Positions 4,448-56,843 of a DNA stretch of 64,000 nucleotides are shown piece after piece. The stretch is taken from NCBI GenBank assembly GCA_964195315.1, contig CAXMOZ010000015.1:31995-95994 (forward strand). The letters run 5' to 3'. The number at the start of each line of letters is the position of its first letter. The first letter of the stretch is position 1. The notes below the pieces were generated by a model that worked only from the letters and a program-made list of their open reading frames with translations, was not told the origin of the DNA and did not search any database. Source of the DNA: an uncultured Acidimicrobiia bacterium (GTDB lineage Bacteria > Pseudomonadota > Gammaproteobacteria > GCA-001735895). Position numbers and translations under genes: made by a program.

Positions 4448-4598
4448 TCTTATAAACCTGGATTTTAATCACAATGTAAAATTTTAGTTGCATTATGTGC
4501 ATATAAATGACGAATTGATACTCTTTGTTGGCTATTTATTGGCTCGCCACCACTTTAATATTCTACCTATCTGAAAACTCAAACTAAGGACTGAATCA
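4448..4598. promoter_or_regulatory. Divergent promoter/operator region between the AsnC-family regulator and the ornithine-cyclodeaminase-like gene
   Basis: 151-bp AT-rich intergenic region between divergent start codons. This is the typical Lrp/AsnC regulator-target arrangement. No specific -10/-35 boxes were verified. Confidence 0.4.
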
Positions 4599-5648
4599 AT
4601 GACTCTATTTGTAGATGTACCCACTCTGGGAAAGATAGTGAGGAAAGTAGGAACCGAAGAATTCATCAATGGCTTGCTGAACTGTTTAGAGCAAGATTTC
4701 TCACGCTGGGAAGATTTTGATAAGTCTGCACGAACCGCTGCTCACAGCGATACTGGCGTTATAGAGTTAATGCCCGTTGCCGATAAAGAAAGCTACGCCT
4801 TCAAATATGTTAATGGGCATCCATCTAACCCTTTGCAAGACTTTCCGACTGTGATGGCTTTTGGAGCGCTATCGGATGTATCAACCGGCTACCCACGACT
4901 GTTATCAGAACTGACCTTGTCAACCGCACTGCGCACCGCAGCGACGTCTGCTATGGCAGCAAAAGCACTTGCCAGAAAGGATTCTCGTATCATGGGAATG
5001 ATTGGCTGTGGCGCGCAGAGCGAATTTCAAGCGATTGCCTTCCATACCATTGCTGGCATAGACGAGTTACGAATTTTCGATCTTGATAAAGCTGCGATGA
5101 GTAAAGTTGAACAGCATTTAAGTAGGCTTCCAAATCTGAAAGTGATCAAAGCTGAGACGGCAAATGACTGTGTGCGCCGAGTAGATATTGTCACCACGGT
5201 TACCGCAGATAAAACATGGGCGACTATTTTGACAGCGGATATGATTGAGCCTGGAATGCATATCAATGCTGTGGGCGGAGATTGTCCCGGGAAAACTGAA
5301 TTAGATATTAATGTACTTAAATCGGGAAAGATTTTCATAGAGCATGAGCCTCAAAGCCGGGTCGAAGGTGAGATTCAGCAGCTACCTTCGGATCATTTGG
5401 TCTATCCGCTTTGGCGTGTCATTGCGGAATTAGATGTAGGACGCGAATCAGATCAACAAATCACCATATTTGATTCTGTGGGATTCGCCCTTGAGGATTT
5501 TTCAGTATTACGTTATATATTTTCTCTGGCAACTAAATACAATTTTGGAGAAACAATTTCATTGGTTCCAAGACTTGAGAATCCGAAGGATTTATTTGAA
5601 CTGACTCTTCATTCCTTCGATAAATCTAGTGCTCAAAAAGTGGCCTGA
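4599..5648 (+). CDS. Ornithine cyclodeaminase/mu-crystallin family protein (EutC-like)
   Basis: 349-aa ORF with a Rossmann NAD-binding motif (GMIGCGAQSEFQAIAF) and overall OCD/mu-crystallin family architecture. Confidence 0.8.
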   Translation: MTLFVDVPTLGKIVRKVGTEEFINGLLNCLEQDFSRWEDFDKSARTAAHSDTGVIELMPVADKESYAFKYVNGHPSNPLQDFPTVMAFGALSDVSTGYPRLLSELTLSTALRTAATSAMAAKALARKDSRIMGMIGCGAQSEFQAIAFHTIAGIDELRIFDLDKAAMSKVEQHLSRLPNLKVIKAETANDCVRRVDIVTTVTADKTWATILTADMIEPGMHINAVGGDCPGKTELDINVLKSGKIFIEHEPQSRVEGEIQQLPSDHLVYPLWRVIAELDVGRESDQQITIFDSVGFALEDFSVLRYIFSLATKYNFGETISLVPRLENPKDLFELTLHSFDKSSAQKVA

Positions 5649-5827
5649 TAAACGCAATCTAACAGGTGATAAATTTTATTTTTAAATATTGGTGGTTCAG
5701 GAAAATAGGTTCTCAGGGATGAGTTATTCTGGATTTTTGGCGACCGAGTCAAATCTTGACAGTTGATTGAAACATACAAAACTGTTGATTGGGTGCAACT
5801 CCAGCTATTGGCATTTAGTGTCCCTTG

Positions 5828-6397
5828 TTATTTTTCACTTGCCTGCGAGTTGAACCTAGCTTCTGCTTCTTTGAACCGAGTTTTCACCCTATCTATGTCC
5901 CAGGGGAATTCGTTTAAGGTTTCATGATCCCATTCACTTCTGGGTTCAATGGGATGAAAGAAATCACCACCATAGACATGGATAGCGGTTGTCATTTTGC
6001 CGATTGGATTGAGAACAGAGTGAATGATTTCTTTTCCCAGAGTGTCAACATCGCCAACCCCAAGAGATTTTGCGCCTGCGGCCTCAATACTTGTTTCGTT
6101 TCGCTTCCAGAACACATTGTCTTCCCGACCTGAATATATTCCTATCACAGCAAACATATGATGATCGTGAGGCATTAAGTTCATATAAGGTGCCCAGGCA
6201 AAATTAATTATTGTCAGGTTATGCGCTTTGTAGATAGGGGTAATTCCGGCGCGTTCTGGTTCACCTAATTCAGACATGACCTCCGCAGGATTCGAGACGG
6301 CAGATGCCACTACTTCGCGGACCGCAGCCTGCCCATCTTTCACTGCTTCAATACAATCCTCGATGAATCTTTCCTTTTCAAACATTTTTTTCTCCAT
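5828..6397 (-). CDS. Cupin-fold (double-stranded beta-helix) metalloprotein, cysteine-dioxygenase-like
   Basis: 189-aa ORF with a His-containing cupin motif (…MPHDHHMFAVIGIYSG… HVYGGDFF). Assignment by eye only. Confidence 0.4.
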   Translation of the reverse strand: MEKKMFEKERFIEDCIEAVKDGQAAVREVVASAVSNPAEVMSELGEPERAGITPIYKAHNLTIINFAWAPYMNLMPHDHHMFAVIGIYSGREDNVFWKRNETSIEAAGAKSLGVGDVDTLGKEIIHSVLNPIGKMTTAIHVYGGDFFHPIEPRSEWDHETLNEFPWDIDRVKTRFKEAEARFNSQASEK

Positions 6398-6498
6398 AGC
6401 TGTGATGGTTTGGCGTTACCAAACCATCACATCGGGTTCTATACCGGGTAGCAGTTGAATTGAAAATTGATGCCACCGTCTGCTTGAGATGGTTGCTA

Positions 6499-6759
6499 TC
6501 AGTTTGCCTTCTCTTTCAGTTGGGCACGTTCTATTAATAACGAAATAATTTTAATGGAACCCCAAATCATTATTGCAGCAGCGATGATGAGCATTCCATT
6601 GACAACATTTTGATCGTTTAATAACGGATGAAATGCGTTTCCGCTTGAACCAAACTTTCCGTAAAGTCCTAAGCCCACCAATATTGAGGCTGGAAAGTCC
6701 ATAATAGCGATATTCCTAATTTCTTTTTGTATTTCATTGATTCGTTCTACAGAGTTCAT
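6499..6759 (-). CDS. Small hypothetical membrane protein
   Basis: 86-aa ORF with two hydrophobic helices (ILVGLGLYGKF…, MLIIAAAIMIWGSIKIISLL). It sits between the dioxygenase-like and cupin genes on the same strand. Confidence 0.35.
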   Translation of the reverse strand: MNSVERINEIQKEIRNIAIMDFPASILVGLGLYGKFGSSGNAFHPLLNDQNVVNGMLIIAAAIMIWGSIKIISLLIERAQLKEKAN

Positions 6760-6910
6760 AAGTTCATCCTGATTATGTCTTACCTATTACGGTTGACTAT
6801 TTGGTCGGCTCAGATTCCGACATATTCTGTTTATTGTGTCTTTGATGCGGTTCGTGTTTCATCATGTCCTACGTGGTTACGTTAGTTAATCGAGTCGATG
6901 GATGATCAAG

Positions 6911-6944
6911 CTGTAGGCCGGAAAAGCGCAGCGCCTTCCGGCTG
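6911..6944. repeat. REP-like extragenic palindromic element, copy 1 of 3
   Basis: Sequence gtaggccggaaaagcgcagcgccttccggc contains a gccgga…tccggc hairpin. It shares a 'gtagg[gc]cggaaaagcgcagcg' core with the copy at 11706-11770. Confidence 0.6.
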
Positions 6945-7094
6945 ACTCTTAACAACAGCGGCCCCAGTTGATAATCGTGTTATTTTTCAAACACCTGTTT
7001 GGAGTATTAGCACGATGGTCACGCCTGATGGCGCCATAGTCTATCAGACCTACGTTGGTTACAACGCCGACACCAATTCCTACGCTAGCCGATT

Positions 7095-8243
7095 TTATGC
7101 TTTATCGAGACGTTTTTTCAATACCCGTAACCGACTTTGAAATTCTGAACGGTCAATATAACAACCGCGTAAATGTCGGTTTCCTGTGGGTTCAAATGCT
7201 TCTCGGCCATGCAATACGCGACGGTTATCAAATACTGCCATTGTGCCTTCGGTTAGTTTTAGAGCTATACGGTATTTTGGTGAGCGCACTCGGGCCATCA
7301 GTTCACGATAAGCCAAATAGTAGTCATGCATAATATCTTCTGGCAGATCGAAAATACTAGCCAGATGAGCATTGTATTTTAGCTCGATAATATTGCCTTG
7401 ATGATCGAGATTTATGACCGGGTGATGGTGGTAAATGTCGTGTTCGTCATCGTGAAAGCGAAACGGTATTGCATGATTAGCCAGCAATTCAAAATGCTCA
7501 TTATCTTCTAAGCGTAACTCTTCGAGTATTCTCAGGCCATCGGCAAAAAGTGATTCACCACCAGCACTTTCATTGGCGAGGCAGTGTAGGAATTGATAGC
7601 CGGGTGGTGTTTCCTGATTCGATAAATCGGTATGCAGGGGTAGGGCCAAAGCGGTATAGGCCAAATTGGTTGGCTTAGGTTCTGTCTTTACCTCAAACGT
7701 AATGCCAAAATTAGTTTGGCGCTGGTAGTCGATACGGTTAGTGACTTCGTTCAATGCCGTTTTTGTCGAAGGCATATTCTGAACGAGGCTAAGACCATCC
7801 TGATCAAGTTGTTTCATCCAAGCATAAAGTGCTTCATTGTCTTGCATTAAATCGATGTAGTTAACGCTATTGATTTGATCCAGAAAACTATTATCCCAGC
7901 TTCTCGAGGCTGGACGATTTCCAGGTTTCAGGTCGCCTGAATAAGCGTGGTTTCGTAACCATGATCCCGGGAACTCACTGTGATGATGCTGCTCCGACCA
8001 ATCAATCAGTAGCTGATCGTTTTCTATTGATACCTTTAGCGGATGTATGTTGGCGCTAATACTCAGCTGGTCAAACACGCGCTCTTGCGTGTCAGGGTGC
8101 AGGGTCGTCGGACAGTTATCTCGAAGCCAAAGAAAATTAAAGCGAGATTGACTGCCGTCACTCCAAATTAAATCTAGACAATGTTGTTTTTGACTGACGG
8201 ATTGCAATAAAAATATGGGGTTAACGACTGGCAACACGTACAT
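7095..8243 (-). CDS. Gamma-butyrobetaine hydroxylase-like Fe(II)/2-oxoglutarate dioxygenase (TauD/TfdA family with N-terminal DUF971/GBBH-N domain)
   Basis: 382-aa ORF. The N-terminus (LIWSDGSQSRFNFLWLRDNC) resembles the GBBH/TMLH N-terminal domain. The C-terminal part is TauD-like with an HxD…H triad (LPLHTDLSN … RVLHGREAF). Confidence 0.65.
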   Translation of the reverse strand: MYVLPVVNPIFLLQSVSQKQHCLDLIWSDGSQSRFNFLWLRDNCPTTLHPDTQERVFDQLSISANIHPLKVSIENDQLLIDWSEQHHHSEFPGSWLRNHAYSGDLKPGNRPASRSWDNSFLDQINSVNYIDLMQDNEALYAWMKQLDQDGLSLVQNMPSTKTALNEVTNRIDYQRQTNFGITFEVKTEPKPTNLAYTALALPLHTDLSNQETPPGYQFLHCLANESAGGESLFADGLRILEELRLEDNEHFELLANHAIPFRFHDDEHDIYHHHPVINLDHQGNIIELKYNAHLASIFDLPEDIMHDYYLAYRELMARVRSPKYRIALKLTEGTMAVFDNRRVLHGREAFEPTGNRHLRGCYIDRSEFQSRLRVLKKRLDKA

Positions 8244-8329
8244 TACTCCGGATATAAAAGGCGCACTATAATAGAATTAGTAAATAAGTATTAAATGAAT
8301 AATTATGTGCTTTGTAATAAGCTCAGCTA
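8244..8329. promoter_or_regulatory. Divergent LysR/dioxygenase promoter region with a candidate LysR-box (ATTAaatgaaTAAT at 8290-8303)
   Basis: 86-bp AT-rich region between divergent starts. It contains an imperfect dyad matching the T-N11-A LysR-box pattern. Not experimentally supported. Confidence 0.35.
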
Positions 8330-9259
8330 ATGCATAAAACCACCATACAATTGCCGCCACTGAACTGGTTAAAAACCTTTGTCGTCGCAGCCCAATTGCT
8401 GAACTTTACCTCAGCAGCAAAAGATTTAAACATGACGCAATCGGCTGTCAGCCAACAAATAAAATTATTGGAGAGCCACCTGGGGCAGGCACTTTTTCAC
8501 CGCCAGCATAAAAAGCTAACATTAACGAATACCGGAATGGCTTACCTGCCAACAGTCCTGCAAGCGCTAGAGGCAATTCAACGCTCTACTCAGGACCTCT
8601 TCACGCCCTTGAAGTACGGTATTCTCACAATTCAAGTCAATACGGCATTTCTTCTACTCTGGTTAACACCTCGAATAGCAGATTTTATGTGCCTCTATCC
8701 TGATATTACCTTGCGAATAATGAGTATAAACTGGAATACCGATCGACTGGCTATGTCTAATGATTTGATCATCGATCATGGCAGAGGCGCGTGGCGTAAT
8801 AGGGAAGTACATCGTTTATTGACACCAAAACTACGGCCTTTTTGCTCGCCTGAAATAAAACAGAAGTTGCATAATGGAATGGACTTGGGTGATTTTTCGC
8901 TAATAGATATTATTGGCAATCAACAGCAATGGGGGGACTGGCTCAAAGAAACGGGATTGGTCATACCGTCCCGATCGATTAGACACCAGGTTGATACTAT
9001 GGCTACTGCTGCCCAGTTAGCCAGATTAGGCGTTGGAATGTTCTTAAGTTATGACGAACTGTTAGAAGATGATATACGCAACGGGGCACTGATTGCGCCA
9101 TTTGATAGATATATCGATACCGTTGATAGCTATTACCTGACGCATGATAATGATAAACCATTGAGCAAGACAGCTGAACTATTCAAAAACTGGCTGTTGA
9201 GTCTTTTGGGTGGGCAAGACGTTTTAGCGCAGGCCTTAGAGAGTAAAAATTCCGATTAG
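8330..9259 (+). CDS. LysR-family transcriptional regulator
   Basis: 309-aa ORF with an N-terminal HTH (LKTFVVAAQLLNFTSAAKDLNMTQSAVSQQIKLLESHLGQALF) and a LysR substrate-binding domain. Divergent from the dioxygenase-like gene. Confidence 0.85.
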   Translation: MHKTTIQLPPLNWLKTFVVAAQLLNFTSAAKDLNMTQSAVSQQIKLLESHLGQALFHRQHKKLTLTNTGMAYLPTVLQALEAIQRSTQDLFTPLKYGILTIQVNTAFLLLWLTPRIADFMCLYPDITLRIMSINWNTDRLAMSNDLIIDHGRGAWRNREVHRLLTPKLRPFCSPEIKQKLHNGMDLGDFSLIDIIGNQQQWGDWLKETGLVIPSRSIRHQVDTMATAAQLARLGVGMFLSYDELLEDDIRNGALIAPFDRYIDTVDSYYLTHDNDKPLSKTAELFKNWLLSLLGGQDVLAQALESKNSD

Positions 9260-9415
9260 CGAATCTCATTCAATGTTGTAATCATGCTTAAAAAGGGCTG
9301 TTTCTGGTTCAATTTGATTGATATTTAACCCCATTTCATATGATTACTATTTAACATTGAAACACGATACCCTAATGTTCAGATAAATAATTGTTTTCCA
9401 AACCAGGAGGTTCAC

Positions 9416-10804
9416 ATGCGATATCAGGATGGACGCGGCGTTTTTTTTACCGCATCAGGCCAGAAAACAGTCGACCAATTTGAGCCAATATTAAAATGTC
9501 TTCTAGGCAGCTACGGTGACCCGGAAGCTGCGATTAAAACGATACTGGCAGAGGACGACGACTTTGTATTGGGTCATTGCTTTCATGCCTACCTCAATTT
9601 GCTTGCGCTCGAACGTAGCTTAATGCCCGTGGTCGCTGGCATTATCGAACGCCTTGAACCACTTTTCGCCAAAGCTTACGATCATGAAAAAGAACATATA
9701 GCAGCGATCAAGAAGTGGTATTCAGGAGATCTGCATGCAGCTGTCAAACACTGGGAAAATGCACTGTTGCAGAACCCCTGTGATTTGCTGGCAATGCGGC
9801 TGTGTCACGACCTAGCGTTTTTTCTCGGTGATTGTCGCAATCTGCGCGACAGTGTGGGGCGCGTTAGAAAAGAATGGAGTCGAGATATGCCGGGTTATGG
9901 TTATCTGCTCGGAATGCATGCCTTTGGCCTCGAAGAATGTGGTGACTACCAACGTGCTGAAGATACTGGTCGTGAAGCGTTGCAGATCAATCCACGTGAT
10001 AGCTGGGCAGTTCACGCTGTTACCCATGTGATGGAGATGATGGGGCGACAGGCCGATGGCATTGAATGGCTTAACTCACGTCAGGCCGATTGGGCCTATG
10101 ATGGTAATTTCTTTGCGGTGCACAATTGGTGGCATCTGGCGATTTATCATTTAGACATGGCTCGATATGATCAGGTGCTCTCGCTCTATGATGGCCCTAT
10201 TCGCAGCGAAAAGTCTGCCGCGGTGCTCGACTTGGTTGATGCATCATCACTGTTGTGGCGTATTCACCTTCAAGGAGAAGATGCCGGTGTAGGACGCTGG
10301 AATGAATTAGCTGAGGGATGGATGAACTATGCCGATGACGGAATTTATGCCTTCAATGATCTGCATATGATGATGGGGCTGGCTGTCACAGCACGCTTTG
10401 ATGAAGCAGACCATTTGGTTCGGTCACTTCAGCAACAGTCCGAAGCAAGTACAGGTACTAATCGACTGGCACTACAGAGTATTGGTTTACCTGCTTGCAA
10501 GGGATTTCTGGCATTTGCACGGGGGCAATACAGTGAAGCAATCGAACATCTATTGCCGGTTAGGCATCGATCGTTTCATTTTGGTGGCAGTCATGCTCAG
10601 CGAGATATATTGAACTGGACAACGATCGAAGCGATGCTGCGTGCTGGACAGTACAGCCGTGCGCGCACTGCCTTGAACGAACGTCTCGAATTGAAACCGG
10701 GCAGTCCGCAAAGCTGGAACATGGCGGCTCGGGCCTATAGTGGGCTCGGTCTAGTGGGAAAATCTGCCGCAGCACGTGACGAGGCCGACCGACTGCTAGA
10801 CTGA
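9416..10804 (+). CDS. TPR-like helical repeat protein, TTC38-like family (function unknown)
   Basis: 462-aa all-helical ORF of the size and repeat character of TTC38-family proteins. A strong RBS (aggagg) lies 7 nt upstream of the ATG. Confidence 0.45.
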   Translation: MRYQDGRGVFFTASGQKTVDQFEPILKCLLGSYGDPEAAIKTILAEDDDFVLGHCFHAYLNLLALERSLMPVVAGIIERLEPLFAKAYDHEKEHIAAIKKWYSGDLHAAVKHWENALLQNPCDLLAMRLCHDLAFFLGDCRNLRDSVGRVRKEWSRDMPGYGYLLGMHAFGLEECGDYQRAEDTGREALQINPRDSWAVHAVTHVMEMMGRQADGIEWLNSRQADWAYDGNFFAVHNWWHLAIYHLDMARYDQVLSLYDGPIRSEKSAAVLDLVDASSLLWRIHLQGEDAGVGRWNELAEGWMNYADDGIYAFNDLHMMMGLAVTARFDEADHLVRSLQQQSEASTGTNRLALQSIGLPACKGFLAFARGQYSEAIEHLLPVRHRSFHFGGSHAQRDILNWTTIEAMLRAGQYSRARTALNERLELKPGSPQSWNMAARAYSGLGLVGKSAAARDEADRLLD

Positions 10805-11086
10805 AAATAAAATAGGCTAACTCGAGTCTCTAATCGCAGTGTTAATGACAAGGATATTCGCACCCAAGTGATCGAACTTTGAGACACCCAATACTATTTT
10901 GTTATTGAGACGCTAAACGTAAAACCGACAGTTCTTATCAAATACTGAAAGTATGATTTTACTCGTGAAAAAATTTGAATGAGATTTGAATAGCTCTAAG
11001 CTAAACTTGAAGTTCAATACCTTTATTCCGTACAAAAGGAATGATGGTAATTATGTAGCAATTTAAGCTGGAGTCGATTAAAAATT

Positions 11087-11680
11087 ATGCCCTGTTTCTA
11101 TAAAGCCCCATTTCAGGGGGTAGTTCAAAATATTTTCAGCTGTGAAGATAGTGAAGCTTCTATTGTTAGCAACATTATTGATAGAGTTAATTTAAGCTAT
11201 GAAGGAATTCCTGATGACACGCATAGTGGATTAACTCGTGCTGCTTGTACCCGGTTTCCTTATTTGTATAAAAAAGGCGTTGAGATTCGAAATACCCGAC
11301 AGCTCAGCATAATATCATCGGAAGAACTTGCTGAAATTGCTGCAGGGCTAGAACTTGATGTTTTGCCTGCTGGATGGCTAGGTGCCAATATTGAACTGTC
11401 AGGTATTCCTAGTCTGACACTACTACCGCCATCGTCACGTCTAGTTTTCAGTAGTAAAGCAACTATAGTTGTCGATATTGAAAACAGGCCTTGTGTTTAT
11501 CCCGCGAAGATAATCGATAGTTATTATCCTGGAAAGGGTAAGAAGTTTATTAAAACAGCTAAGAACAAACGAGGAATAACTGCTTGGGTTGAGCGAGAAG
11601 GATTGATTGAACCAGGTGACAGTGTCGAGGTGTTCGTTCCTGATCAGCCTAGCCATCCTTTGTTAACAGCATCTGATTGA
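11087..11680 (+). CDS. MOSC-domain protein (YiiM-like)
   Basis: 197-aa ORF whose C-terminal half (…AWVEREGLIEPGDSVEV) resembles the MOSC beta-barrel domain. Confidence 0.5.
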   Translation: MPCFYKAPFQGVVQNIFSCEDSEASIVSNIIDRVNLSYEGIPDDTHSGLTRAACTRFPYLYKKGVEIRNTRQLSIISSEELAEIAAGLELDVLPAGWLGANIELSGIPSLTLLPPSSRLVFSSKATIVVDIENRPCVYPAKIIDSYYPGKGKKFIKTAKNKRGITAWVEREGLIEPGDSVEVFVPDQPSHPLLTASD

Positions 11681-11705
11681 GATTTCTTAGCGGACAAGAT
11701 TTAAC

Positions 11706-11770
11706 CCGTAGGGCGGAAAAGCGCAGCGTTATCCGCCGCATGTATTGACGAATTCATCATCGCCCTACGG
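11706..11770. repeat. REP-like palindromic element, copy 2 of 3
   Basis: Terminal inverted repeats cccgtagggcg … cgccctacgg flank a gaaaagcgcagcg core. The stop codon of the minus-strand alpha/beta-hydrolase gene (rc of cta at 11765-11767) lies inside the right arm. Confidence 0.6.
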
Positions 11771-12670
11771 CTCTCGCTTCTGGTATAGGTAAGACAACAC
11801 CGCCTGAATTACAGCGTCATCTTTTAGTATTCTATTATGCCCAAGACCCACTGTTTTAAGACTAGTGCAACCTTTCCATGTCGCTTCTATTTCTTCGAAT
11901 AATGACGCATCTATTTCTTCATCTTTGTGGTCGTGCACGAGCATGCCTGTCGGTGTTTTATGGTTGAGTAACGCCGCTGGATTTAATGTGCTCCACGGGT
12001 CTTGTTGACCCAGAATATCGTGCATTTTTTCGCCACTCAAATCACGAAACCGAATTGCCAGTGTTGGCCTTAGGTTTAACAATTCACTATAGGACTTGAA
12101 CATTTTCTCTACGTCGAGATGGGGTGCCATCATGACCAAATGTTGCGCCTTTAAACCTCGTTGAAAGGCCTCAGTGGCCGCCATTGCGCCGAGGGAATGG
12201 GCAATGACGACATTAACTTCGCCAACTTGTTGCTGGATCGCTAATAAAGTATTTGTGAATTCAAGCAAGTGGGATTTTCTGCCGTCATTTTGTCCGTGTG
12301 CAGGTGCATCAAATGTGATGACCTGATACCCAGCAGCCACTAGAGCGGGTATGAAGTATCGAAACTGGGTCCCCGATCCACTCCACCCATGCATTAAAAT
12401 AACCAATGGTCCCTTGCCCCAACTATAAACGGGGAGGCTTTTGTCTTTTAATTGAATGGTGATTGATTCATCGGCTTGTTGCCAAAATTCATTCACCCAT
12501 TGCTTTGGCTTTGATTTAAAAACAGTAAACCAGAGTTGGCTAAGCACTCGCGCCGGCCATTCATTGTGTATCCGTGAGAATAGGTTAAGGCCAAAACCAG
12601 CAAGCTGAAAACTAATCGGAACAACTCGTTTAGCTCTGCCAGATGAGCTCATCATGGTCTTCTTATTCAT
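11765..12670 (-). CDS. Alpha/beta-fold hydrolase
   Basis: 301-aa ORF with an oxyanion-hole HG motif (LMHGWSG) and a nucleophile elbow (AHSLGA). Confidence 0.75.
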   Translation of the reverse strand: MNKKTMMSSSGRAKRVVPISFQLAGFGLNLFSRIHNEWPARVLSQLWFTVFKSKPKQWVNEFWQQADESITIQLKDKSLPVYSWGKGPLVILMHGWSGSGTQFRYFIPALVAAGYQVITFDAPAHGQNDGRKSHLLEFTNTLLAIQQQVGEVNVVIAHSLGAMAATEAFQRGLKAQHLVMMAPHLDVEKMFKSYSELLNLRPTLAIRFRDLSGEKMHDILGQQDPWSTLNPAALLNHKTPTGMLVHDHKDEEIDASLFEEIEATWKGCTSLKTVGLGHNRILKDDAVIQAVLSYLYQKREP

Positions 12671-12823
12671 TGGGCTGTTATCCCGGATAGATTACGTGGT
12701 TGATAGATCATGTGTTCAATTTCTTTTGTGTCTTGCTAGATTTCAAGTGATCATTATGACTATTGCGAATCAAGTTAAGTAGTGTCATATTTGACATAAT
12801 ACAAGCCATTTCGGACGCTTCTA

Positions 12824-13828
12824 ATGCGGGCAGCACTTTATTTAATGGATCAATGTATCGGTAGTGGCATACATGGCATTATCGATTCACTGATCGCGGC
12901 AAATTATACTTTGGTCAAGTCGGGGCATCAGCCGATGTTTAGTTGGGACACAGTGTCTATTACGGGTAAACCGGTTGTGCCGACGAATGGATTGAGGATT
13001 CAGCCCGATTACAAGTTGAGTGACTATCTGCAACTGGATACCAGTCCCGACGTGTGGATTTTCCCATCGGTTTTCCAGTCTTCTACTGGCTTTGAAAAGA
13101 TTGAAATAGCACTCGAAGAGGCGCAATCTTTAATGAAGGTGATTCGCAATCACCATGACCAAGGCAAGCTGTTAATTAGCATTTGTAGCGGTTGTTTTTT
13201 ATTGGCAGCTGCTGGACTTATGGTTAATAGCCCCGCCTTAATGCACTGGAAAAGCGAGCATCATTTTAGGCGCCTATTCCCGAAACTAAAAGTTGATACC
13301 CGTCACTCCATCGCTGACTATGGCAATATCATTTGCGCGATCGGTGGCGGTATGGCCTATGAATACCTGGTGATGCATTTGGTTGAACGATTTGCCGGTC
13401 ATCGCACCGCCGTTGATACCGCCAAGTTACTTATGATGCACCTTAAAGCGCCATCGCCGCTGCCTTTTCGTACCAATATCGAAACCAGCTATCACAGCGA
13501 CGAACTGGTCCAACGTGCGCAACGCTACCTCGAACAGAATTTGAATCACGAGGTTGATATCTCCGACCTATCTAAGCAGGTTAACATTAGTGACCGGCAG
13601 CTCAGTCGTCGTTTTAGTAAGGCGCTCGATTGTTCTCCACTACAATATTTACAGCAGGTCCGAATTAATCGAGCCTGTAACTTGCTTGAGTTAACGCAAT
13701 TGCCATCGAGTAAAATTGTGTATGAAATTGGTTATCAGGATGAGAGTAGCTTCCGGCGTTTGTTTAAGAAACAAATGGATATGACAATGGAAGGCTATCG
13801 ACAGCAGTTTGGCGTTACAGAAAGATAA
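12824..13828 (+). CDS. GlxA-type AraC-family transcriptional regulator (DJ-1/PfpI-like N-domain + AraC HTH)
   Basis: 334-aa ORF. It has an N-terminal GATase1/DJ-1-like domain with the conserved Cys (ICSGCFLLAAAG) and two C-terminal AraC HTH motifs (…DESSFRRLFKK…). Confidence 0.8.
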   Translation: MRAALYLMDQCIGSGIHGIIDSLIAANYTLVKSGHQPMFSWDTVSITGKPVVPTNGLRIQPDYKLSDYLQLDTSPDVWIFPSVFQSSTGFEKIEIALEEAQSLMKVIRNHHDQGKLLISICSGCFLLAAAGLMVNSPALMHWKSEHHFRRLFPKLKVDTRHSIADYGNIICAIGGGMAYEYLVMHLVERFAGHRTAVDTAKLLMMHLKAPSPLPFRTNIETSYHSDELVQRAQRYLEQNLNHEVDISDLSKQVNISDRQLSRRFSKALDCSPLQYLQQVRINRACNLLELTQLPSSKIVYEIGYQDESSFRRLFKKQMDMTMEGYRQQFGVTER

Positions 13829-18129: not shown

Positions 18130-19785
18130 ATGAGTAAAAACGAAACCAATAACGGTAAACCGTTACATCCAGCCATTAAGGATTGGGCGAAAGATGCAAA
18201 AGAAGGGAAAATGGAACGGCGTGAGTTTTTAGCTCTGTCGACTGCTTTTGCTGCCACCACTGTGACTAGCTTTGCCTTATTAGGTCTTGCTGCCCCAGGA
18301 GAAGCTCAGGCTGCGAAAAAAGGTGGATCTTTACGGATTCAGATGGAAGTCCGCCGTATTCCCGACCCACGTATTTTTGACTGGTCTCAAATGGCCAACG
18401 TTGCTCGTGGCATGCACGAAAACTTGGTGCGTTACACAGCAAACGCTACGTTTGAGCCCTACCTGTTAAGCAGTTGGGAAGTAAACGATGACGCGACTGT
18501 ATACACGCTAAATGTACGTAAAGGAGTGAAGTGGTCGAATGGAGATGATTTCACATCAAAAGACGTCGCTTTCAATATTAATCGCTGGTGTGACAAGTCT
18601 GCTGAAGGTAATTCGATGGCTGGTCGTATGGCGACATTGATCGATGCCGATTCTGGCAAAGCTGGTTCAGGCGTTATCGAAATCGTTGACAGTCATACGG
18701 TTAAACTTAATCTGCCCAACCCTGATATCTCTATTATTCCAGGTTTTTGTGACTATCCTGCATTATGTGTACACCCTGGTTACGATGGGTCTGATCTTCA
18801 TAATGGTGATCACCCAGGTACAGGCCCTTACATGATCGAGAGGCATGAAGTAGGCGTTCAATCAGTATTGGTTAAACGACCAGGTCATCAATGGTGGGGT
18901 GGTGAAGCCAACCTAGATCGCATTGAGTATCTAGACTATGGAACTGATCCATCGACCTTCTTGGCTGCTTTTGAAGCCGACGAAATTGATATGGTCTATG
19001 AAACTACAGGCGAATATAAAGAGATTTTTGCTAGCTTGGGATTAGCAGAATCCGATGCTGTGACGGCTGCAACTATCGTCATTCGACCCAACCAGAATGC
19101 AGAAGTGAATGGTATGAAGCCATATGCCGATGTACGCGTTCGTCGTGCAATTGCACTCGCTTGTGATAACGCGAAAATTCTTGAGTTAGGTGTTGCCGGT
19201 TTAGGTGTTCCTGCTGAGAACCATCATGTTTGTCCTATTCATCCTGAATACTACAAGCTACCTGCGATTAAACGAGATGCTGCGAAAGCGAAGGCATTGA
19301 TGGCAGAAGCGGGTATGGCTGACTATGAGCATGAATTGCTGTCAATTGATGACGATTGGCGTCGTGCTTCAACCGATGCTGTTGCAGCTCAGATGCGTGA
19401 TGCCGGTATCAAAGTTAAGCGCACGGTATTACCGGGTTCCACTTTCTGGAACGACTGGGCTAAGTATCCGTTCTCATCGACTAACTGGAATATGCGTCCC
19501 TTGGGTGTTCAGGTTCTGGCGTTGGCTTACCGTGGTGGTGAAGCGTGGAATGAATCAGGCTTTAACAATAAAGAATTTGACGATACTCTGACTAAAGCAC
19601 TCTCTATTGCAAACGCAGATGATCGCAGAGTTTTGATGAAACGTCTTGAAGAAATCATGCAAGAACAGGGTGTCACTATACAGCCTTACTGGCGCACGAT
19701 TGGACGTAACTTTAAAGACAATGTGGTTAATGCTGAAATGCATCCAACCTATGAAATCCACGTTGAAAGACTCGGGCTGGCTTAA
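18130..19785 (+). CDS. ABC transporter substrate-binding protein, family 5 (peptide/nickel/opine type), Tat-signal
   Basis: 551-aa ORF with a twin-arginine signal ([33 protein letters not shown]). It has SBP_bac_5 length and composition. An RBS (gaggag) lies upstream. Confidence 0.8.
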
Positions 19786-19810
19786 CCGCCGCTCCACATA
19801 GCAAAAAACA

Positions 19811-19838
19811 TCAGGGGCGTTAAGCCCCTGAATTTTTT
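19811..19838 (+). terminator. Rho-independent terminator after the substrate-binding-protein gene
   Basis: Stem tcaggggc / gcccctga with loop gttaa, followed by tttttt. Confidence 0.75.
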
Positions 19839-19907
19839 GGGTGGTAGCTTCGTAAAACTGATGCTCTCCTTACTGTCTCTACAAAATAAATACAAAGAGG
19901 AATTCCC

Positions 19908-20975
19908 ATGCTGAATTTCATACTTAGGCGACTAGGTTTGATGCTGCTAACAGCATTCTGCCTGACCTTCATCGTATTCTATTTGACCAATCTTGAACCT
20001 AATCTCGAGAAATTGGCGAAAGAACAAAATAATATGCGTATGACCGACCCGCAGGTTTTGTCCTGGCTTCAAAAAAATGGTTACCGTGATCCGTTGCTTT
20101 CGAGATATGGCCAGTGGTTGGGTTTCGTACCTGGCTGGACAGGTGTGGATGAAGATAACGGTAAGCAGACTGGACGTTGTGTTCGCCGTAACGTAGATAA
20201 TACGCCGTCTTATTGTGGCGTTATCCAAGGTGAATGGGGAATGTCTACTGTATTTGGCGAAGATGTTGGCAAAATCATTAGCAAACGCCTCGGTGCAACT
20301 GGTTGGCTAATGTTGTGGGTGATGATTACCATGATCCCCATGGCGTTGATTATTGGCGTACTCGCAGGTATGCGTGAAGGTACCAAGTTAGACCGATCGC
20401 TTTCGACTTTTTCGATTACGACGACAGCAACACCTGAATACGTGTCAGGCGTTCTTTTTATCGTTTTGTTTGCCTCTTCTAAGTACGGGCTATCGCCATT
20501 GTTTCTAGAAAGTGGCACGATTTTGAAAGGCTCGGCTGCGTCTGCAATCAAATCAATTACGATTGAAAATTTTACTTTGCCAGTGATAACCATGGCTTTA
20601 TATGGTCTTGGTTATATCGCTCGAATGACACGAGCATCAATGGCAGAGGTAATGACCGCCCAATACATTCGTACCGCAACGCTAAAGGGTGTTAGCTTCA
20701 AGAATGTGGTTCTAAAACACGCACTTAGAAATGCACTAATAGCACCTTTTACCGTCATCATGTTGCAGTTTCCGTGGTTGCTTACCGGCGTGGTTATTGT
20801 TGAAACCTTGTTTAATTACAAAGGCTTCGGCTGGGTATTGGTACAGGCGGCGAGCAATAATGATATTGAAACCCTGTTGGGTTGTTCGGTCGTAGCCGTG
20901 ATTGTCGTTTTATTAACGCAGCTTATTTCTGATATTGGCTACGTTTATCTCAACCCGCGTATTCGCGTTAAATAG
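19908..20975 (+). CDS. ABC transporter permease (DppB/OppB-like)
   Basis: 355-aa polytopic membrane protein with an N-terminal TM helix and the BPD_transp_1 region. Confidence 0.8.
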   Translation: MLNFILRRLGLMLLTAFCLTFIVFYLTNLEPNLEKLAKEQNNMRMTDPQVLSWLQKNGYRDPLLSRYGQWLGFVPGWTGVDEDNGKQTGRCVRRNVDNTPSYCGVIQGEWGMSTVFGEDVGKIISKRLGATGWLMLWVMITMIPMALIIGVLAGMREGTKLDRSLSTFSITTTATPEYVSGVLFIVLFASSKYGLSPLFLESGTILKGSAASAIKSITIENFTLPVITMALYGLGYIARMTRASMAEVMTAQYIRTATLKGVSFKNVVLKHALRNALIAPFTVIMLQFPWLLTGVVIVETLFNYKGFGWVLVQAASNNDIETLLGCSVVAVIVVLLTQLISDIGYVYLNPRIRVK

Positions 20976-20980
20976 GGGGA

Positions 20981-22141
20981 ATGACAATGGAAAATATGTC
21001 TGGTATCAGCATTATGGCCTCCATTTTGTGGAGCTTCTTGCCTGTTTGGATTGGTATTATTGTCGTCTTTGCAGTTTCAATGAAATATAAGCAAAGCCTC
21101 GGACTCTACGGCAAGTTGTTTAATAGCACGGTCGGTATGATTGGTCTGGGCCTGCTGTTATTTTGGACTTTCACCGCCCTGTTTGCGGATTTGATTACTC
21201 AGTTTGATGCCTACTCACAGTTGTCCGGTATGAAGAATAAACTACCCGGCACACCTGTACCGGGTGAAGAAGGCGCCTACTATTTACTGGGGGGTGACAG
21301 GCTCGCTCGGGATGTGTTTAGTCGTATGGTTTACGGTAGCCAAACTGTTTTGATCATCGCGCCTGCCGCAACGTTATTCGCTTTCATGGTGGGTATTACA
21401 CTAGGGTTGCCGGCTGGTTATTTTACGGGACGACTTGATTCAGTCTTGAGTTTTATCTCTAACTTGGTGTTGGCATTTCCCGTTATCCTTTTATTCTATT
21501 TGCTAGTAACACCCGAAATACGATCTACTGGAATACCAATATATCTAGCAGCTTTGCTATTTATCTTTCCGATTGTATTTTTACTGATCTTATTCAAAAC
21601 GCGCTTCATCGCGCAGCCACAAAAATTGAAGGTTTATGTTTCGATCACACTGGTGTTCGGGTTGTGGGCCTATTCAGGGCTGGCATTTAATGCGGATCCA
21701 TTCGGGGTTTGGTCCATGGATCCCAACCTGCTGAATATCTTCGTATCGGTCGTATTTGTTAACTCGCCAACGGTATTTCGTATTGTGCGTGGTTTAACAC
21801 TTGATATTAAAACACGAGATTACGTAGCCGCCGCGCAAACACGTGGTGAAACACCCTGGTACATCATGTTATGGGAGATTTTGCCGAATGCTCGTGGGCC
21901 GCTTATCGTTGATTTCTGCCTACGGATTGGTTACACCACCATATTACTCGGAACACTCGGTTTCTTCGGACTCGGTGTGAGTCCTGAAAGCCCAGACTGG
22001 GGACTAACGATCAATGAAGGACGTAAGCTAATATCCCTCAACCCTTACCCAGCTATTGCGCCAGCACTGGCTCTAATGTCGCTGGTACTCGGACTTAACC
22101 TGCTGGCTGATGGCCTGCGCGAACAATCGCTAAAAGATTAG
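20981..22141 (+). CDS. ABC transporter permease (DppC/OppC-like)
   Basis: 386-aa polytopic membrane protein. It is tightly linked (6-bp gap) to the upstream permease. Confidence 0.8.
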   Translation: MTMENMSGISIMASILWSFLPVWIGIIVVFAVSMKYKQSLGLYGKLFNSTVGMIGLGLLLFWTFTALFADLITQFDAYSQLSGMKNKLPGTPVPGEEGAYYLLGGDRLARDVFSRMVYGSQTVLIIAPAATLFAFMVGITLGLPAGYFTGRLDSVLSFISNLVLAFPVILLFYLLVTPEIRSTGIPIYLAALLFIFPIVFLLILFKTRFIAQPQKLKVYVSITLVFGLWAYSGLAFNADPFGVWSMDPNLLNIFVSVVFVNSPTVFRIVRGLTLDIKTRDYVAAAQTRGETPWYIMLWEILPNARGPLIVDFCLRIGYTTILLGTLGFFGLGVSPESPDWGLTINEGRKLISLNPYPAIAPALALMSLVLGLNLLADGLREQSLKD

Positions 22142-22151
22142 GAGAGTAGAG

Positions 22152-24266
22152 ATGTCAGAGCAATCCATTTCAGAACAATCCAATTCACAACAGCCGATCC
22201 TGGAAATTGAAAATCTGTCCATATCTTTCTTTACCCAAGCGGGTGAAATCCCAGCCGTAATGGATTTCTCCTGCAGCGTTATGCCGGGAGATTCGATGGG
22301 ACTGGTGGGAGAGTCAGGCTGTGGTAAGTCAACCGTTGCTCTCGCGATTATGCGATATTTAGGTAACAACGGCGATATTGTTAATGGCAGTATTAAGTTT
22401 AAAGGTCGCGATATGGCGACCATGACAAAAGAAGAGATGCGTGGAATTCATGGCTCTGAAATTGCGATGATTTATCAAGAGCCAATGGCCAGTTTGAATC
22501 CTGCGATGAAAATTGCTCGGCAATTAATGGAAGTGCCGTTAATCCATGAAAAAGTCAGCGAAGCGCAAGCAGAAGCTCGATGCCTTGAGATGCTAGAGGC
22601 GGTACGACTACCAGATCCGGCGCGAATCATGAAGTCATATCCGCATCAGCTTTCGGGTGGTCAGCAACAACGTATCGTCATTGCGATGGCGCTTTTATCC
22701 AAACCAGCGTTGTTATTACTCGATGAGCCAACCACCGCACTGGATGTAACGGTCGAGGCGGGCATTGTTGAATTGGTTAAAGATTTAGGTAAAAAATTCG
22801 GTACCTCAATATTATTTATTTCACATAACCTAGGTTTAATTCTGGAAACCTGCAATCGCATTACAGTGATGTACTCAGGAGAAGCGGTAGAAACAGGCAC
22901 TATTCATGACGTTTTTGATCGTATGCGACACCCATATACTCAGGGCTTATTTCGCTCCATTCCCTTGCCCGGAGCCGATAAAAATACGCGGCCATTGATG
23001 TCGATAAATGGTCAGTTGCCACTGCCACATGAACGTCCAAGAGGTTGTAATTTTGGACCCCGCTGCGATTATTTTGAAGATGAAATATGCGACAAGAATC
23101 TGGTGTCGATGCAAACAGTTGAAGGACATGATACGCATAGCTCTCGATGTATGCGTATTACCGATATTGACTGGAAAGCTAAGCCAGTGTTTAAAGGGTC
23201 AAATGAAAAAACAGAACCCGGTGACGTTGTTCTGTCTATAACAAACTTAAAGAAATATTATCAGGTGGCCGCCAACGAAATTTTTGGTGGCATAGAATCA
23301 AGGGTAGTGAAAGCGAATGAAGATATTACGCTGGAAGCTCGTGAATCAGAAACCTTAGCGATTGTCGGTGAATCAGGTTGTGGTAAGTCTACTCTAGCGA
23401 AAGTGTTAATGGGGCTAGAGACAGCTACCGATGGGAAAATTGAGCTAGGCGACATGGTGGTTAGTGATGTTGAAATAGGCGACCGGGATCCAAAAACTGT
23501 CGGCCAGGTTCAAATGGTATTTCAAAATCCATTCGATACTTTGAACCCAAGCCATTCTATTGGTTCACAAATTATCCGTGCCTTAGAGATGTTTAAAGTG
23601 GGTACGGATGATGCTGACCGTAAAGAGCGTATGTTGAAATTGCTCGATCTGGTGAAGCTGCCGCGTGAATTTTCGAGTCGAATGCCAAGACAATTATCGG
23701 GTGGCCAAAAACAACGAATTGGTATCGCGCGAGCATTTGCGGGTGAACCAAAAATCGTTGTTGCTGATGAGCCTGTTTCAGCGCTCGACGTTTCCGTCCA
23801 GGCTGCTGTTACCAAATTATTAATGGATATTCAGCGTCGCTCGGGTACGACCATGTTATTTATTAGCCACGATTTATCGATAGTACGTTATCTGGCTGAC
23901 CGAGTAGTGGTGATGTATTTAGGTCATGTCATGGAGCAAGGCACAACCGATGAAATTTTCTCACCGCCTTATCATCCCTATACTGAAGCCTTATTGTCCG
24001 CAGTGCCGATAGCGGATACATCCGTGGTTAAAAAGCATATTGTTCTAGAAGGAGACATACCATCGGCAATGAACCCACCGCCTGGTTGCCCATTTCAGAC
24101 GCGTTGCCCGCGAAAGCATCAGGTTGAAGGTGATATTTGTGAGCGTGAAGTACCTGCAATGAAAGTACTAGATTCTGGCCATAGTATTAAATGTCACTTA
24201 TCGGATGACGTGTATAGCGGTATGGATGAAATCTTTAAGTTCAATAACGACGCGGCACAGGGTTAA
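22152..24266 (+). CDS. ABC transporter ATP-binding protein with two fused nucleotide-binding domains (DppD/DppF-type)
   Basis: 704-aa ORF with two Walker A motifs (GESGCGKST twice), two ABC signatures (LSGGQQQR, LSGGQKQR) and two Walker B motifs (LLLDEPT, VVADEPV). Oligopeptide-type C-terminal Cys-rich extensions are present. Confidence 0.9.
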   Translation: MSEQSISEQSNSQQPILEIENLSISFFTQAGEIPAVMDFSCSVMPGDSMGLVGESGCGKSTVALAIMRYLGNNGDIVNGSIKFKGRDMATMTKEEMRGIHGSEIAMIYQEPMASLNPAMKIARQLMEVPLIHEKVSEAQAEARCLEMLEAVRLPDPARIMKSYPHQLSGGQQQRIVIAMALLSKPALLLLDEPTTALDVTVEAGIVELVKDLGKKFGTSILFISHNLGLILETCNRITVMYSGEAVETGTIHDVFDRMRHPYTQGLFRSIPLPGADKNTRPLMSINGQLPLPHERPRGCNFGPRCDYFEDEICDKNLVSMQTVEGHDTHSSRCMRITDIDWKAKPVFKGSNEKTEPGDVVLSITNLKKYYQVAANEIFGGIESRVVKANEDITLEARESETLAIVGESGCGKSTLAKVLMGLETATDGKIELGDMVVSDVEIGDRDPKTVGQVQMVFQNPFDTLNPSHSIGSQIIRALEMFKVGTDDADRKERMLKLLDLVKLPREFSSRMPRQLSGGQKQRIGIARAFAGEPKIVVADEPVSALDVSVQAAVTKLLMDIQRRSGTTMLFISHDLSIVRYLADRVVVMYLGHVMEQGTTDEIFSPPYHPYTEALLSAVPIADTSVVKKHIVLEGDIPSAMNPPPGCPFQTRCPRKHQVEGDICEREVPAMKVLDSGHSIKCHLSDDVYSGMDEIFKFNNDAAQG

Positions 24267-52810: not shown

Positions 52811-53125
52811 TGTAATTCCACGTGATTTTCGGTTGGATGATATGGAATTATGACTTTAATGGCTAGAGGGCTGTCGGGTTTAGGGTGAATCTAGAGCAGA
52901 AAATTCATTTCGGCCAGCGCTTCTTATTCAGTTCATTGAGTGGAATAACTATACCCAAAGCATTCGCTGCGCTCATGGGGCAGGCCCTCGGCCTCATTCG
53001 ATTAGACAATCTGATTCAAAATGACTTTCCACTCACTATGTTATCTTAAATCCGACAAAATCCTAGTGCTGTTGACCATGCTGTCGTAACATAATGTGAC
53101 CTTTTTCGATTGATTGGAACGCCAA

Positions 53126-53566
53126 ATGAAATATTTGCATACCATGGTGAGAGTTAATGATCTTGACGCGTCTCTGGCATTTTATTGTGATTTGCTGGGG
53201 CTGGTTGAGACCAGTCGAACTGTTTATGAAAAGGATGAATTTACGCTAGTGTTTTTAGCAGCGCCAAATGACGTTGCCCAGGTTGAAGCGGAGCGAGCAC
53301 CATTGCTAGAGCTGACTTACAACTGGGGCGGCGAGGTTTTTCAAGGGGGTAGAAACTTTGGTCATTTAGCCTTTGCAGTGGATGATATTTACGCCTTATG
53401 CCAAAAGATGCTGGATAACAATGTAACCTTAAACGTACCTCCGAGAGATGGCCACATGGCTTTTGTTCGCTCGCCCGATAATATATCGATTGAGTTATTA
53501 CAAAATGGCAATGCTTTGCCAGTGAGCGAGCCTTGGCAATCTATGTCGGTTACTGGGGAATGGTAG
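53126..53566 (+). CDS. gloA: Lactoylglutathione lyase (glyoxalase I, VOC family)
   Basis: MKYLHTMVRVNDLDASLAFYCDLLGL… is collinear with E. coli GloA ([20 protein letters not shown]…). The start was moved to the ATG at 53126; the track begins at an upstream TTG. Confidence 0.75.
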   Translation: MKYLHTMVRVNDLDASLAFYCDLLGLVETSRTVYEKDEFTLVFLAAPNDVAQVEAERAPLLELTYNWGGEVFQGGRNFGHLAFAVDDIYALCQKMLDNNVTLNVPPRDGHMAFVRSPDNISIELLQNGNALPVSEPWQSMSVTGEW

Positions 53567-53746
53567 GCCAGTAGAAAAGCTCGATGTGCCGAGTCGACAT
53601 TGCAGGCTTGAATTTGCCCCCATCTTTCTAACTTGATACATTGATATAATAATCACAGATTAGCTATATAGAACAACAGTTTCAGTTTGATTTGCTTTGG
53701 GCTCGCAAAAACGATTGGTTCTTAATGCAAGCGTGACGGAACAGAT

Positions 53747-53797
53747 CACTGCAACGCAACTATTGCACCATGATGGTGCGATAGTTGCGTTGCAGTG
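53747..53797. promoter_or_regulatory. Large near-perfect palindrome in the glgC upstream region (candidate operator or RNA hairpin)
   Basis: Arms cactgcaacgcaactattgca… / …tgcgatagttgcgttgcagtg: about 20-bp arms with one mismatch and a roughly 7-nt spacer, about 115 bp upstream of the glgC ATG. Confidence 0.5.
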
Positions 53798-53912
53798 CGC
53801 TCTGCAGGATAGTAATTTATCATGTATTAGTAAGATTGCTTTTATGGTGGTTCGGATGCAGTACAGCAGCTCGGGCAGCTATAGTGAATAATATAACGCA
53901 AGGATACCTATT

Positions 53913-55187
53913 ATGAAAACAACCAATCAGAGCCGCTACGTCAGCCGTCTTGCAAGCGAAACCTTAGCACTGGTATTAGCCGGAGGTCGTGGCTCGCGCT
54001 TATACGAACTCACCGACTGGCGAGCAAAACCGGCAGTCCCCTTCGGTGGCAAATTCCGCATCATCGATTTTCCACTTTCAAACTGTATCAACACTGGCAT
54101 TCGCCGCATTGGTGTTTTGACCCAATACAAGGCTCATTCGTTGATTCGTCATCTGGTTCGTGGCTGGAGTCGTTTCGATAGTGAGCTAGACGAATTTGTC
54201 GAAATTTTGCCTGCTTCACAGCGCGCAGGTGGCGAGTGGTATCAAGGCACTGCAGACGCTGTTTTTCAAAATCTCGACATCATGCGTACGCATCGACCCA
54301 AATATGTATTGATCTTGTCGGGAGACCATATCTACAAGATGGATTACGGTGACATGCTTGCCACCCATCATGAAAAAAAATCTGATATGACTATTGCTTG
54401 TCTTGAAGTGCCAATCGAAGAGGCCGCAGGTGCATTTGGTGTGATGACGGTTGACGAGTCTGGTCGTATTATCGAGTTTAATGAGAAACCGGCCCATCCT
54501 GCAGAGATACCTGGTCAGCCGGGATTTTGTCTCGCCTCGATGGGTAACTACTTATTTAATACTGAGTTTCTTTATGAGCAGCTTATTAAAGATGCCGACA
54601 CTTCAAAATCTACTCATGATTTTGGAAAAGACATTATCCCTTCGGTGATCGACAAGTATCAAGTTCATGCCTACCCGTTTCGTGACATGGATACCGGCGA
54701 ACGCGCTTATTGGCGTGACGTTGGAACACTGGATGCTTTCTGGGAGGCGAATATGGAATTGGTCAACGTTACGCCAGAATTAAATCTCTACGATCAACGC
54801 TGGCCGATTCTGACCCATCAAGCTCAAATGCCACCAGCCAAGTTTGTATTTGATCTTGATGAGCGTCGCGGCATGGCAACCGACTCAATGGTATCAGGAG
54901 GCTGCGTGATTTCCGGTGCGACGGTGAAACATTCGTTATTATTTTCCAACGTACGTGTCCACTCTTATGCAGAAATAACCGATAGTGTCATCTTGCCGGA
55001 TGTCGATATAGGCCAAAATGCGAAGATTCACAAAGCCATTATCGATCGAGGTTGCACCATTGAAGAAGGCATGGTGATTGGCCACGATCACGAAGAAGAT
55101 AAAAAACGCGGCTTTCGAGTAACCGAAAAAGGTATCGTATTGGTGACGCCAGATATGTTAAACCAAAACACCCACCTGAGTCGTTAG
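53913..55187 (+). CDS. glgC: Glucose-1-phosphate adenylyltransferase
   Basis: 424-aa ORF: [43 protein letters not shown]…, the canonical ADP-glucose pyrophosphorylase N-terminus. Confidence 0.95.

Positions 55188-56842
<1,655 letters not shown>

Positions 56843-56843
<1 letters not shown>

Follow-up and report, generated by a model that had tools for sequence, protein, structure and literature searches.

Upstream of glgC, the first gene of a glgC-pgm-glgA-glgB-glgP-glgX operon (glgC at 53913–55187, plus strand), lies a near-perfect inverted repeat of 51 bp (53747–53797), which is real, single-copy where searched and orthologous across three lineages. Positions refer to the window, by which we mean the whole stretch of DNA analysed, 64 kb in length. 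The best explanation, to which we give a probability of roughly 0.42, is that the palindrome is an NtrC-type dyad abutting the glgC promoter, and that it would have been made near-perfect by quasipalindrome template-switch correction.

According to this explanation the palindrome would be a DNA-level regulatory element of the glgC promoter that owes its symmetry to mutation and not to function. A dimeric regulator, for which NtrC is the best match, would bind the 17-bp centre (53764–53780); the site would end 9 bp upstream of the furthest-upstream candidate −35, with the −35 region at 53785–53795 and the −10 region at 53808–53818. Transcription would start near 53820–53826, placing the regulator at about −45 to −61, from where, once bound, it would modulate the binding of RNA polymerase and so tie glycogen synthesis to nitrogen status. 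The right arm would be conserved as promoter DNA, while the left arm would have been turned into the exact complement of the right by a replication template switch, taking an ancestral imperfect repeat to arms of 25 bp. We infer the NtrC identity, the direction of regulation, the transcription start and the template-switch origin.

The palindrome and its locus

The two arms are 25 nt long (left arm 53747–53771, CACTGCAACGCAACTATTGCACCAT; right arm 53773–53797, ATGGTGCGATAGTTGCGTTGCAGTG), are 96% complementary and flank a single central nucleotide, G53772. Their sole mismatch sets T53764 opposite G53780; it would be a G·U wobble in RNA from the plus strand and an A·C mismatch in RNA from the minus strand, and it coincides with the outermost pair of the 17-bp NtrC-like box described below. 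Past an internal loop the stem is extended by four further pairs, specific to the window, between CAGA (53742–53745) and TCTG (53801–53804). Folding predictions for the hairpin give −47.2 kcal/mol (z = −10.6) for RNA and −29.3 kcal/mol (z = −9.2) for DNA.

An initial annotation of this DNA had described a dyad with arms of about 20 bp, some 115 bp upstream of glgC in a 346-bp leader, and had called it extremely unlikely by chance. Its location is confirmed, as are both distances: 115 bp separate the end of the palindrome from the ATG at 53913, and the intergenic gap (53567–53912) measures 346 bp. The description of a long, near-perfect dyad also stands, although its length was understated, the arms being 25 nt. 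With regard to chance, no arm match at up to three mismatches occurred in 100 dinucleotide-preserving shuffles, nor was there another in the 64 kb, and a rough expectation for 25-nt arms with at most one mismatch in 64 kb is about 5e-8. Comparable inverted repeats are absent from the rest of the window, in which 53747–53797 is the only one of such quality.

The 5′ neighbour of the intergenic gap is a glyoxalase-family gene (53126–53566, plus strand). Within the operon, a phosphoglucomutase gene (55194–56843) stands between glgC and glgA, a layout unlike the glgBXCAP of E. coli; a relative whose GlgC is 85% identical (L101) has a 66-aa ORF in its place. GlgC is also encoded on eleven further metagenome contigs from different samples, being identical in ten and different by one amino acid in one. 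All ten of those contigs that cover the intergenic region are 100% identical across it, so that the palindrome itself has no variant among these contigs, which belong to the same population. The closest species in the genome collection has a GlgC that is just 83% identical.

Relatives whose Rho is identical and whose genes run in the same order as far as the glyoxalase gene lack the glg operon, and carry at its spot either nrdBA (L111–L120) or a Gly_transporter gene (L121–L125); their homology to the window ends at about 53618, just past the glyoxalase terminator hairpin. Because these close relatives with the same flanks carry other genes there, the palindrome, the glg cluster and the region upstream of it are, on comparison of gene order, accessory DNA at a variable spot. 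The glyoxalase terminator in relatives is a clean stem followed by a T-run (GCCAGATA...TA(T/C)CTGGC, then TTGATTTT or TTAAATT). In the window (53577–53617) it is degraded, and read-through toward glgC is therefore conceivable; a terminator scan near the end of the glyoxalase gene called a terminator-like site on the minus strand, at 53593–53580. Directly upstream of the palindrome lies a segment of about 76 nt (53660–53735) that is found only in the window lineage, is absent from the sister lineages and has no similarity in the rest of the window or in the fetched loci. A 64-aa ORF that runs across the palindrome (53697–53891) starts inside this window-specific segment and is without a family match, and was rejected as a candidate gene. 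The far end of the window (160–13828) holds genes for catabolism of ectoine and compatible solutes (doeB, ornithine cyclodeaminase and a gamma-butyrobetaine-dioxygenase-like gene) along with GcvA/LysR- and GbdR/AraC-type regulators, and is followed by an oligopeptide ABC transporter at 18130–24266.

Conservation, core and promoters in three lineages

The same intergenic region is found in two sister lineages, one with 94% GlgC identity (L091–093, L095–096 and L127) and one with 92% (L094). The three lineages are approximately equidistant, with an identity at four-fold degenerate sites of 0.58–0.70, and from these sites we took the neutral level to be about 0.62 for pairs and about 0.45 for all three lineages together. 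Measured against this, three-lineage identity is 0.36, approximately neutral, in the outer left arm (53747–53757), 0.71 in the inner left arm, 0.79 in the inner right arm and 0.82 in the outer right arm, and it reaches 1.00 (19/19) in a 19-mer beyond the palindrome (53808–53826, GATAGTAATTTATCATGTA). The right arm is thus conserved as sequence in all three lineages, while the outer left arm is lineage-specific and reads CAGCCGAATT in a sister lineage. The parts of the dyad that are invariant across lineages are GCACCA and GGTGCGATA.

The symmetry of the dyad varies between lineages. In the 94% lineage a perfect 14-bp inner stem sits within a dyad that is imperfect as a whole, and in L094 a stem of 8 bp is followed by an internal loop and further pairs, with two internal mismatches and a decayed stem between the core and the outer arm. 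Six of the window's ten outer pairs are formed in the relatives, where a block GCCG lies unpaired opposite GCAG. Within the 94% species, the 290-bp intergenic region contains three SNPs, one of which (T/C) disrupts a pair of the stem immediately beyond the 17-bp box and segregates 3:3 among six contigs; stem perfection is therefore under no strong selection in that sister species. The three SNPs occur in at least four different combinations in the six contigs, which points to recombination within that population.

In relatives at 83–88% GlgC identity the upstream regions cannot be aligned with the window, and have conserved blocks of their own and weak TGCAC-N7-GGGCA boxes. Four of them at 85–88% (L097, L098, L099 and L101) have in common a TGCAC-N7-G(G/T)GCA box, represented in L097 by TGCACAACAATGGGGCA about 300 bp upstream of glgC (L097:600), and a strongly conserved upstream block GTATCTTTTTT..TTAACCTAGTACCATT.

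The core dyad of the palindrome, TGCACCATGATGGTGCG (53764–53780), agrees with the NtrC box TGCACCAnnnTGGTGCA at 13 of the 14 positions that are specified (16 of 17 positions overall), the consensus being that of enteric and other Gammaproteobacteria, which may differ from this organism's own motif. The box has been published both in this form (PMC8743547) and as TGCACC(A/T)4TGGTGCA (PMC4987338). The core is the only match with at most one mismatch in the 64 kb, and none of 100 shuffles contained one. In L094 the corresponding box, TGCACCAAAATGGTGCG, also scores 13/14 and has an A/T centre like the consensus; that of L091 in the 94% lineage, CGCACCATAGCGGTGCG, is degenerate (11/14). The core shares with NtrC (GlnG) sites its dyad of 17 bp, its half-sites and its 3-nt centre; all eight of the most-conserved positions (GCAnnAnnnTnnTGC) are present in both the window and L094, and the operon downstream is a metabolic one, whose product builds up when nitrogen is limiting. 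Unlike such sites, the core is a single one that abuts a sigma-70-like −35 and has no conserved sigma-54 promoter downstream, and its symmetry runs 17 bp past the box on each side (4–5 more with CAGA/TCTG), none of which NtrC needs.

NtrC normally activates sigma-54 promoters from 70–150 bp upstream, mostly through at least two sites, and to our knowledge glgC is no established NtrC target. The NtrC half-site resembles the sigma-54 −24 element, and the match is for this reason partly confounded. Several results count against the best explanation: canonical action of NtrC needs a sigma-54 promoter and usually two sites, neither of which is present, there being no further NtrC box at up to three mismatches in the intergenic region; and upstream of glgC in 80 other proteobacterial loci the core motif shows no enrichment. 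Nor are NtrC boxes enriched upstream of glg genes in Shewanella and Alteromonas, the hits in the latter falling inside coding sequence. In addition, the perfect 14-bp stem of the 94% lineage extends past a box that is itself degenerate, so that the symmetry may be constrained by something besides an NtrC dimer. The 64 kb of the window contain neither ntrC nor rpoN.

Published work nevertheless leaves room for such a site. The periphery of the NtrC regulon is large and specific to each taxon (PMC5343134), ‘starch and sucrose metabolism’ is over-represented among the targets predicted from the NtrC motif in Shewanella (PMC2532739), and in S. oneidensis the glg genes co-vary with nitrogen-starvation genes (PMC3424579). 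We regard the core as probably a site for a dimeric regulator of NtrC type, as its sequence suggests, and nitrogen control of glycogen synthesis here as plausible. With the box adjoining a sigma-70 −35, repression would be the more natural sign, and the effect may go in either direction. The proposal that the dyad is a high-affinity site for a dimeric regulator is accordingly retained in part: the core qualifies as a regulator site, being a 13/14 NtrC box that abuts a conserved −35, whereas high affinity does not follow from length when conservation in the sister lineages is limited to the right arm and the inner part. With the outer left arm neutral and a stem-breaking SNP segregating, mutation accounts better than regulator binding for the length of the dyad. 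The motif YGCRNYGCR (the PhaR/AniA core) has three matches in the arms and the conserved block TTGCAGTGCG (53749–53758 and 53786–53799). It has been described for alphaproteobacterial carbon-storage regulators (PMC12542648) and for PHB regulators of alpha- and betaproteobacteria, and the matches may be due to chance as the motif is low in information.

Sigma-70 promoters were sought with a position-weighted scan of the three aligned intergenic regions, positions being based on the consensus. Only two −35/−10 pairs occupy alignment columns that all three lineages share, and these are candidate sigma-70 promoters on the plus strand: TTGCGT (53785–90), a 17-nt spacer and GATAGT (53808–13); and TTGCAG (53790–95), a 17-nt spacer and TAATTT (53813–18). 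Both have the −35 inside the right arm (53773–53797) and the −10 inside the invariant 19-mer, which would also hold the likely start region, and we attribute the conservation of right arm and 19-mer to these candidate elements. Within the 19-mer there is also a dyad, GATA-N6-TATC, possibly a second regulator site over the −10 and start region. A higher-scoring candidate lies upstream of the palindrome in the window only (TTGCCC at 53614, a 17-nt spacer and TGnTACATT at 53637, spanning 53614–53642); no promoter candidate 5′ of the palindrome is conserved in the sister lineages. From the conserved promoters, situated in and after the right arm, the palindrome would stay untranscribed.

Arm length and competing readings

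Compared with the sister lineages, the left arm of the window differs by six substitutions within 8 nt of its outer part, and each of the six creates a pair with the right arm. An unconstrained 25-nt arm would, at the neutral rate observed, be expected to hold about five mismatches, and there is one. In quasipalindrome correction, a nascent strand copies one arm of a repeat from the other, and the repeat grows more perfect (PMC7202029); template switching of this kind has been put forward as what keeps inverted repeats perfect across Proteobacteria (PMC5941160). The changes in the window have the marks of this process, in that they are clustered in one arm, are all templated by the other and adjoin an older stem. 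Their polarity is unrooted, as in the intergenic region the two sister lineages fall together. Change in either direction needs an active process, whether templated correction or selection on pairing, and the latter looks weak in the sister species, to judge by their variation. The extreme length of the arms is thus most likely due to template-switch correction of an older imperfect repeat, as the comparison of lineages suggests. The locus resembles the quasipalindrome hotspots of the Ripley model, known from thyA and lacZ reporters in E. coli, in that clustered one-arm changes perfect an imperfect repeat and are all templated by the other arm, starting from a pre-existing stem. It differs in that the events at those hotspots were observed as mutations, while here they are deduced from three natural lineages and are unrooted.

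If template switching accounts for the arms, the extended palindrome could be functionless altogether, a neutral by-product of repeated switching, with regulation coming only from the promoter block and the 19-mer. We consider this unlikely, although a good deal speaks for it: the outer left arm is unconstrained in relatives, a SNP that breaks the stem segregates in the sister species, template switching is held to make and maintain perfect inverted repeats in Proteobacteria (PMC5941160, PMC7202029), and the −35 region alone accounts for the conservation of the right arm. It does not explain why GCACCA, the inner left half-site, shows no change in any of three lineages that are elsewhere at the neutral level, nor the match to a known regulator consensus, which is unlikely by chance, nor the retention of a significant hairpin or dyad in all three lineages.

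We rank the DNA-level reading, an NtrC-type dyad at the promoter, first and take an RNA hairpin to be its main rival. The palindrome would then act within a long glgC leader, as a site for RNase III or other processing, or as an element of stability or translation, in a transcript starting upstream at TTGCCC-17-TGnTACATT (53614–53642) or reading through from the glyoxalase gene. The degraded glyoxalase terminator and the high score of that upstream sigma-70 candidate, both in the window, would provide for such a transcript, although upstream candidates are not conserved in the sister lineages. The plus-strand RNA folds better than shuffles in all lineages, with values, besides that of the window, of −26.5 kcal/mol in L091 (z −4.2), −21.8 in L095 (z −2.8) and −22.5 in L094 (z −3.0), and the minus-strand fold of L094 is weak (−13.9, z −1.9). 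The window's mismatch and three positions in L094 are G·U on the plus strand; the strand preference is, however, inconsistent, as the window and L094 favour the plus strand and L095 the minus strand, and a plus-strand C·A mismatch occurs in L095, L093 and L127, in addition to the two internal mismatches of L094. Two pairs are changed on both sides with pairing kept, yet this covariation is not significant, for 66 of 500 shuffles do as well and there are only four distinct sequences, and in the core both arms keep their sequence and do not covary. No family in Rfam matches: a scan of 53000–54500 returned only generic microRNA hairpin models, which scored 25–31 bits where the thresholds lie at 80–140. 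Considering both sides, we find a functional RNA hairpin doubtful, on a par with the neutral by-product.

One form of this reading, in which the hairpin is an intrinsic terminator or attenuator, is ruled out, as the stem is without a U-tract on either strand (being followed by CGCTCTGCAGG on the plus strand and GATCTGTTCC on the minus strand) and the terminator scan made no call. A hairpin acting in the 5′ UTR, as had been suggested, may exist all the same, though with the conserved promoters the palindrome would not be part of the transcript. A further suggestion, that glgC is under CsrA control as in E. coli, drew on an AAGGA at the Shine-Dalgarno. The element is present (53900–53904, 8 nt before the ATG), but the remark is weak because AAGGA is not conserved in the sister lineages, both of which have GAGGTCA. 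The E. coli glgC leader, a CsrA-bound 5′ UTR with multiple promoters, is similar in being a long non-coding region with several promoter-like sites and in having GGA at the Shine-Dalgarno, a feature found here in the window and absent from its sister lineages. It is dissimilar in showing no sequence similarity, and the operon downstream is glgC-pgm-glgA-glgB-glgP-glgX here and glgBXCAP there.

A more elaborate version of the regulatory reading, which we hold to be improbable, would make the locus an accessory glycogen operon, found in some lineages only of this marine gammaproteobacterial group, with its own nitrogen switch, in which an NtrC-type regulator acts directly on the sigma-70 promoter and the palindrome forms a second layer. 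This second layer may consist in occlusion of the −35 by a cruciform or hairpin, or in cleavage of read-through transcripts by RNase III.

Less credible still, and very unlikely in our estimation, is that the right arm is a sigma-54 promoter (TGGTGCG-N4-TTGCG, 53774–53789, with GG-N10-GC), either transcribed or ‘repressive’ towards sigma-70, of which the palindrome would be a mirrored copy. The consensus TGGCACG-N4-TTGCW is matched at 9/12 with both invariant dinucleotides present, and in E. coli RpoN holoenzyme with NtrC is reported to compete or interfere with RpoD holoenzyme (PMC8743547). Against this, the 64 kb contain 23 sites scoring at least 9/12, which is the chance level; the −12 GC is missing in both sister lineages (TTGA and TTGG); and GG-N10-GC occurs nowhere in the intergenic region of the 94% lineage. 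More generally, no conserved sigma-54 promoter was found, the candidates in the window scoring 7–9/12, at chance level, and L091 and L095 having none.

There remains the concern, raised in the initial annotation, that the dyad might be a REP-type repeat occurring widely in the genome. A REP-type repeat has many copies per genome, for the most part at gene 3′ ends. Here the arm proved to have no second copy in the window, and searches of viral contigs, of plasmids and phages, and of 1.1 Mb of related loci, 15 of them from glg-less sister lineages, likewise turned up none. A search of 241 million metagenome records, a collection without the source organism, gave eight hits, none palindromic and all in unrelated contexts. 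The element is thus locus-specific as far as these sequence sets go. It shares with REP/BIME-type palindromes an intergenic location, a mixed GC content and the ability to form a stable hairpin, and differs from them in being single-copy where searched, 5′ and regulatory in position, orthologous and partly conserved. That a REP, MITE or other mobile palindromic repeat landed by chance upstream of glgC is the least probable reading of all and scarcely to be entertained, for although the glg cluster and its upstream region occupy a variable spot and a lineage-specific segment of 76 nt adjoins the palindrome, no other copy was found in any of these sets and the element lies at an orthologous position with conserved flanks in three lineages, which disfavours a dispersed repeat.

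Implications for glycogen storage and repeat evolution

As a kind of element the palindrome is ordinary and known, and its shape is unusual; neither the evolution of the repeat nor the possible nitrogen link changes current understanding. For the evolution of repeats, the locus would offer a clear case from nature of an imperfect inverted repeat that has been driven near-perfect, with the sister lineages keeping the imperfect state. Should the accessory operon indeed possess a nitrogen switch that acts directly on its sigma-70 promoter, a gammaproteobacterium would here have its carbon storage controlled by NtrC independently of sigma-54. A link between nitrogen and glycogen has long been implied by physiology and has rarely been mapped to a promoter. 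If the core of the palindrome is a working NtrC-type site, glycogen storage in this abundant, uncultured marine gammaproteobacterium would be tied directly to nitrogen status at the level of transcription.
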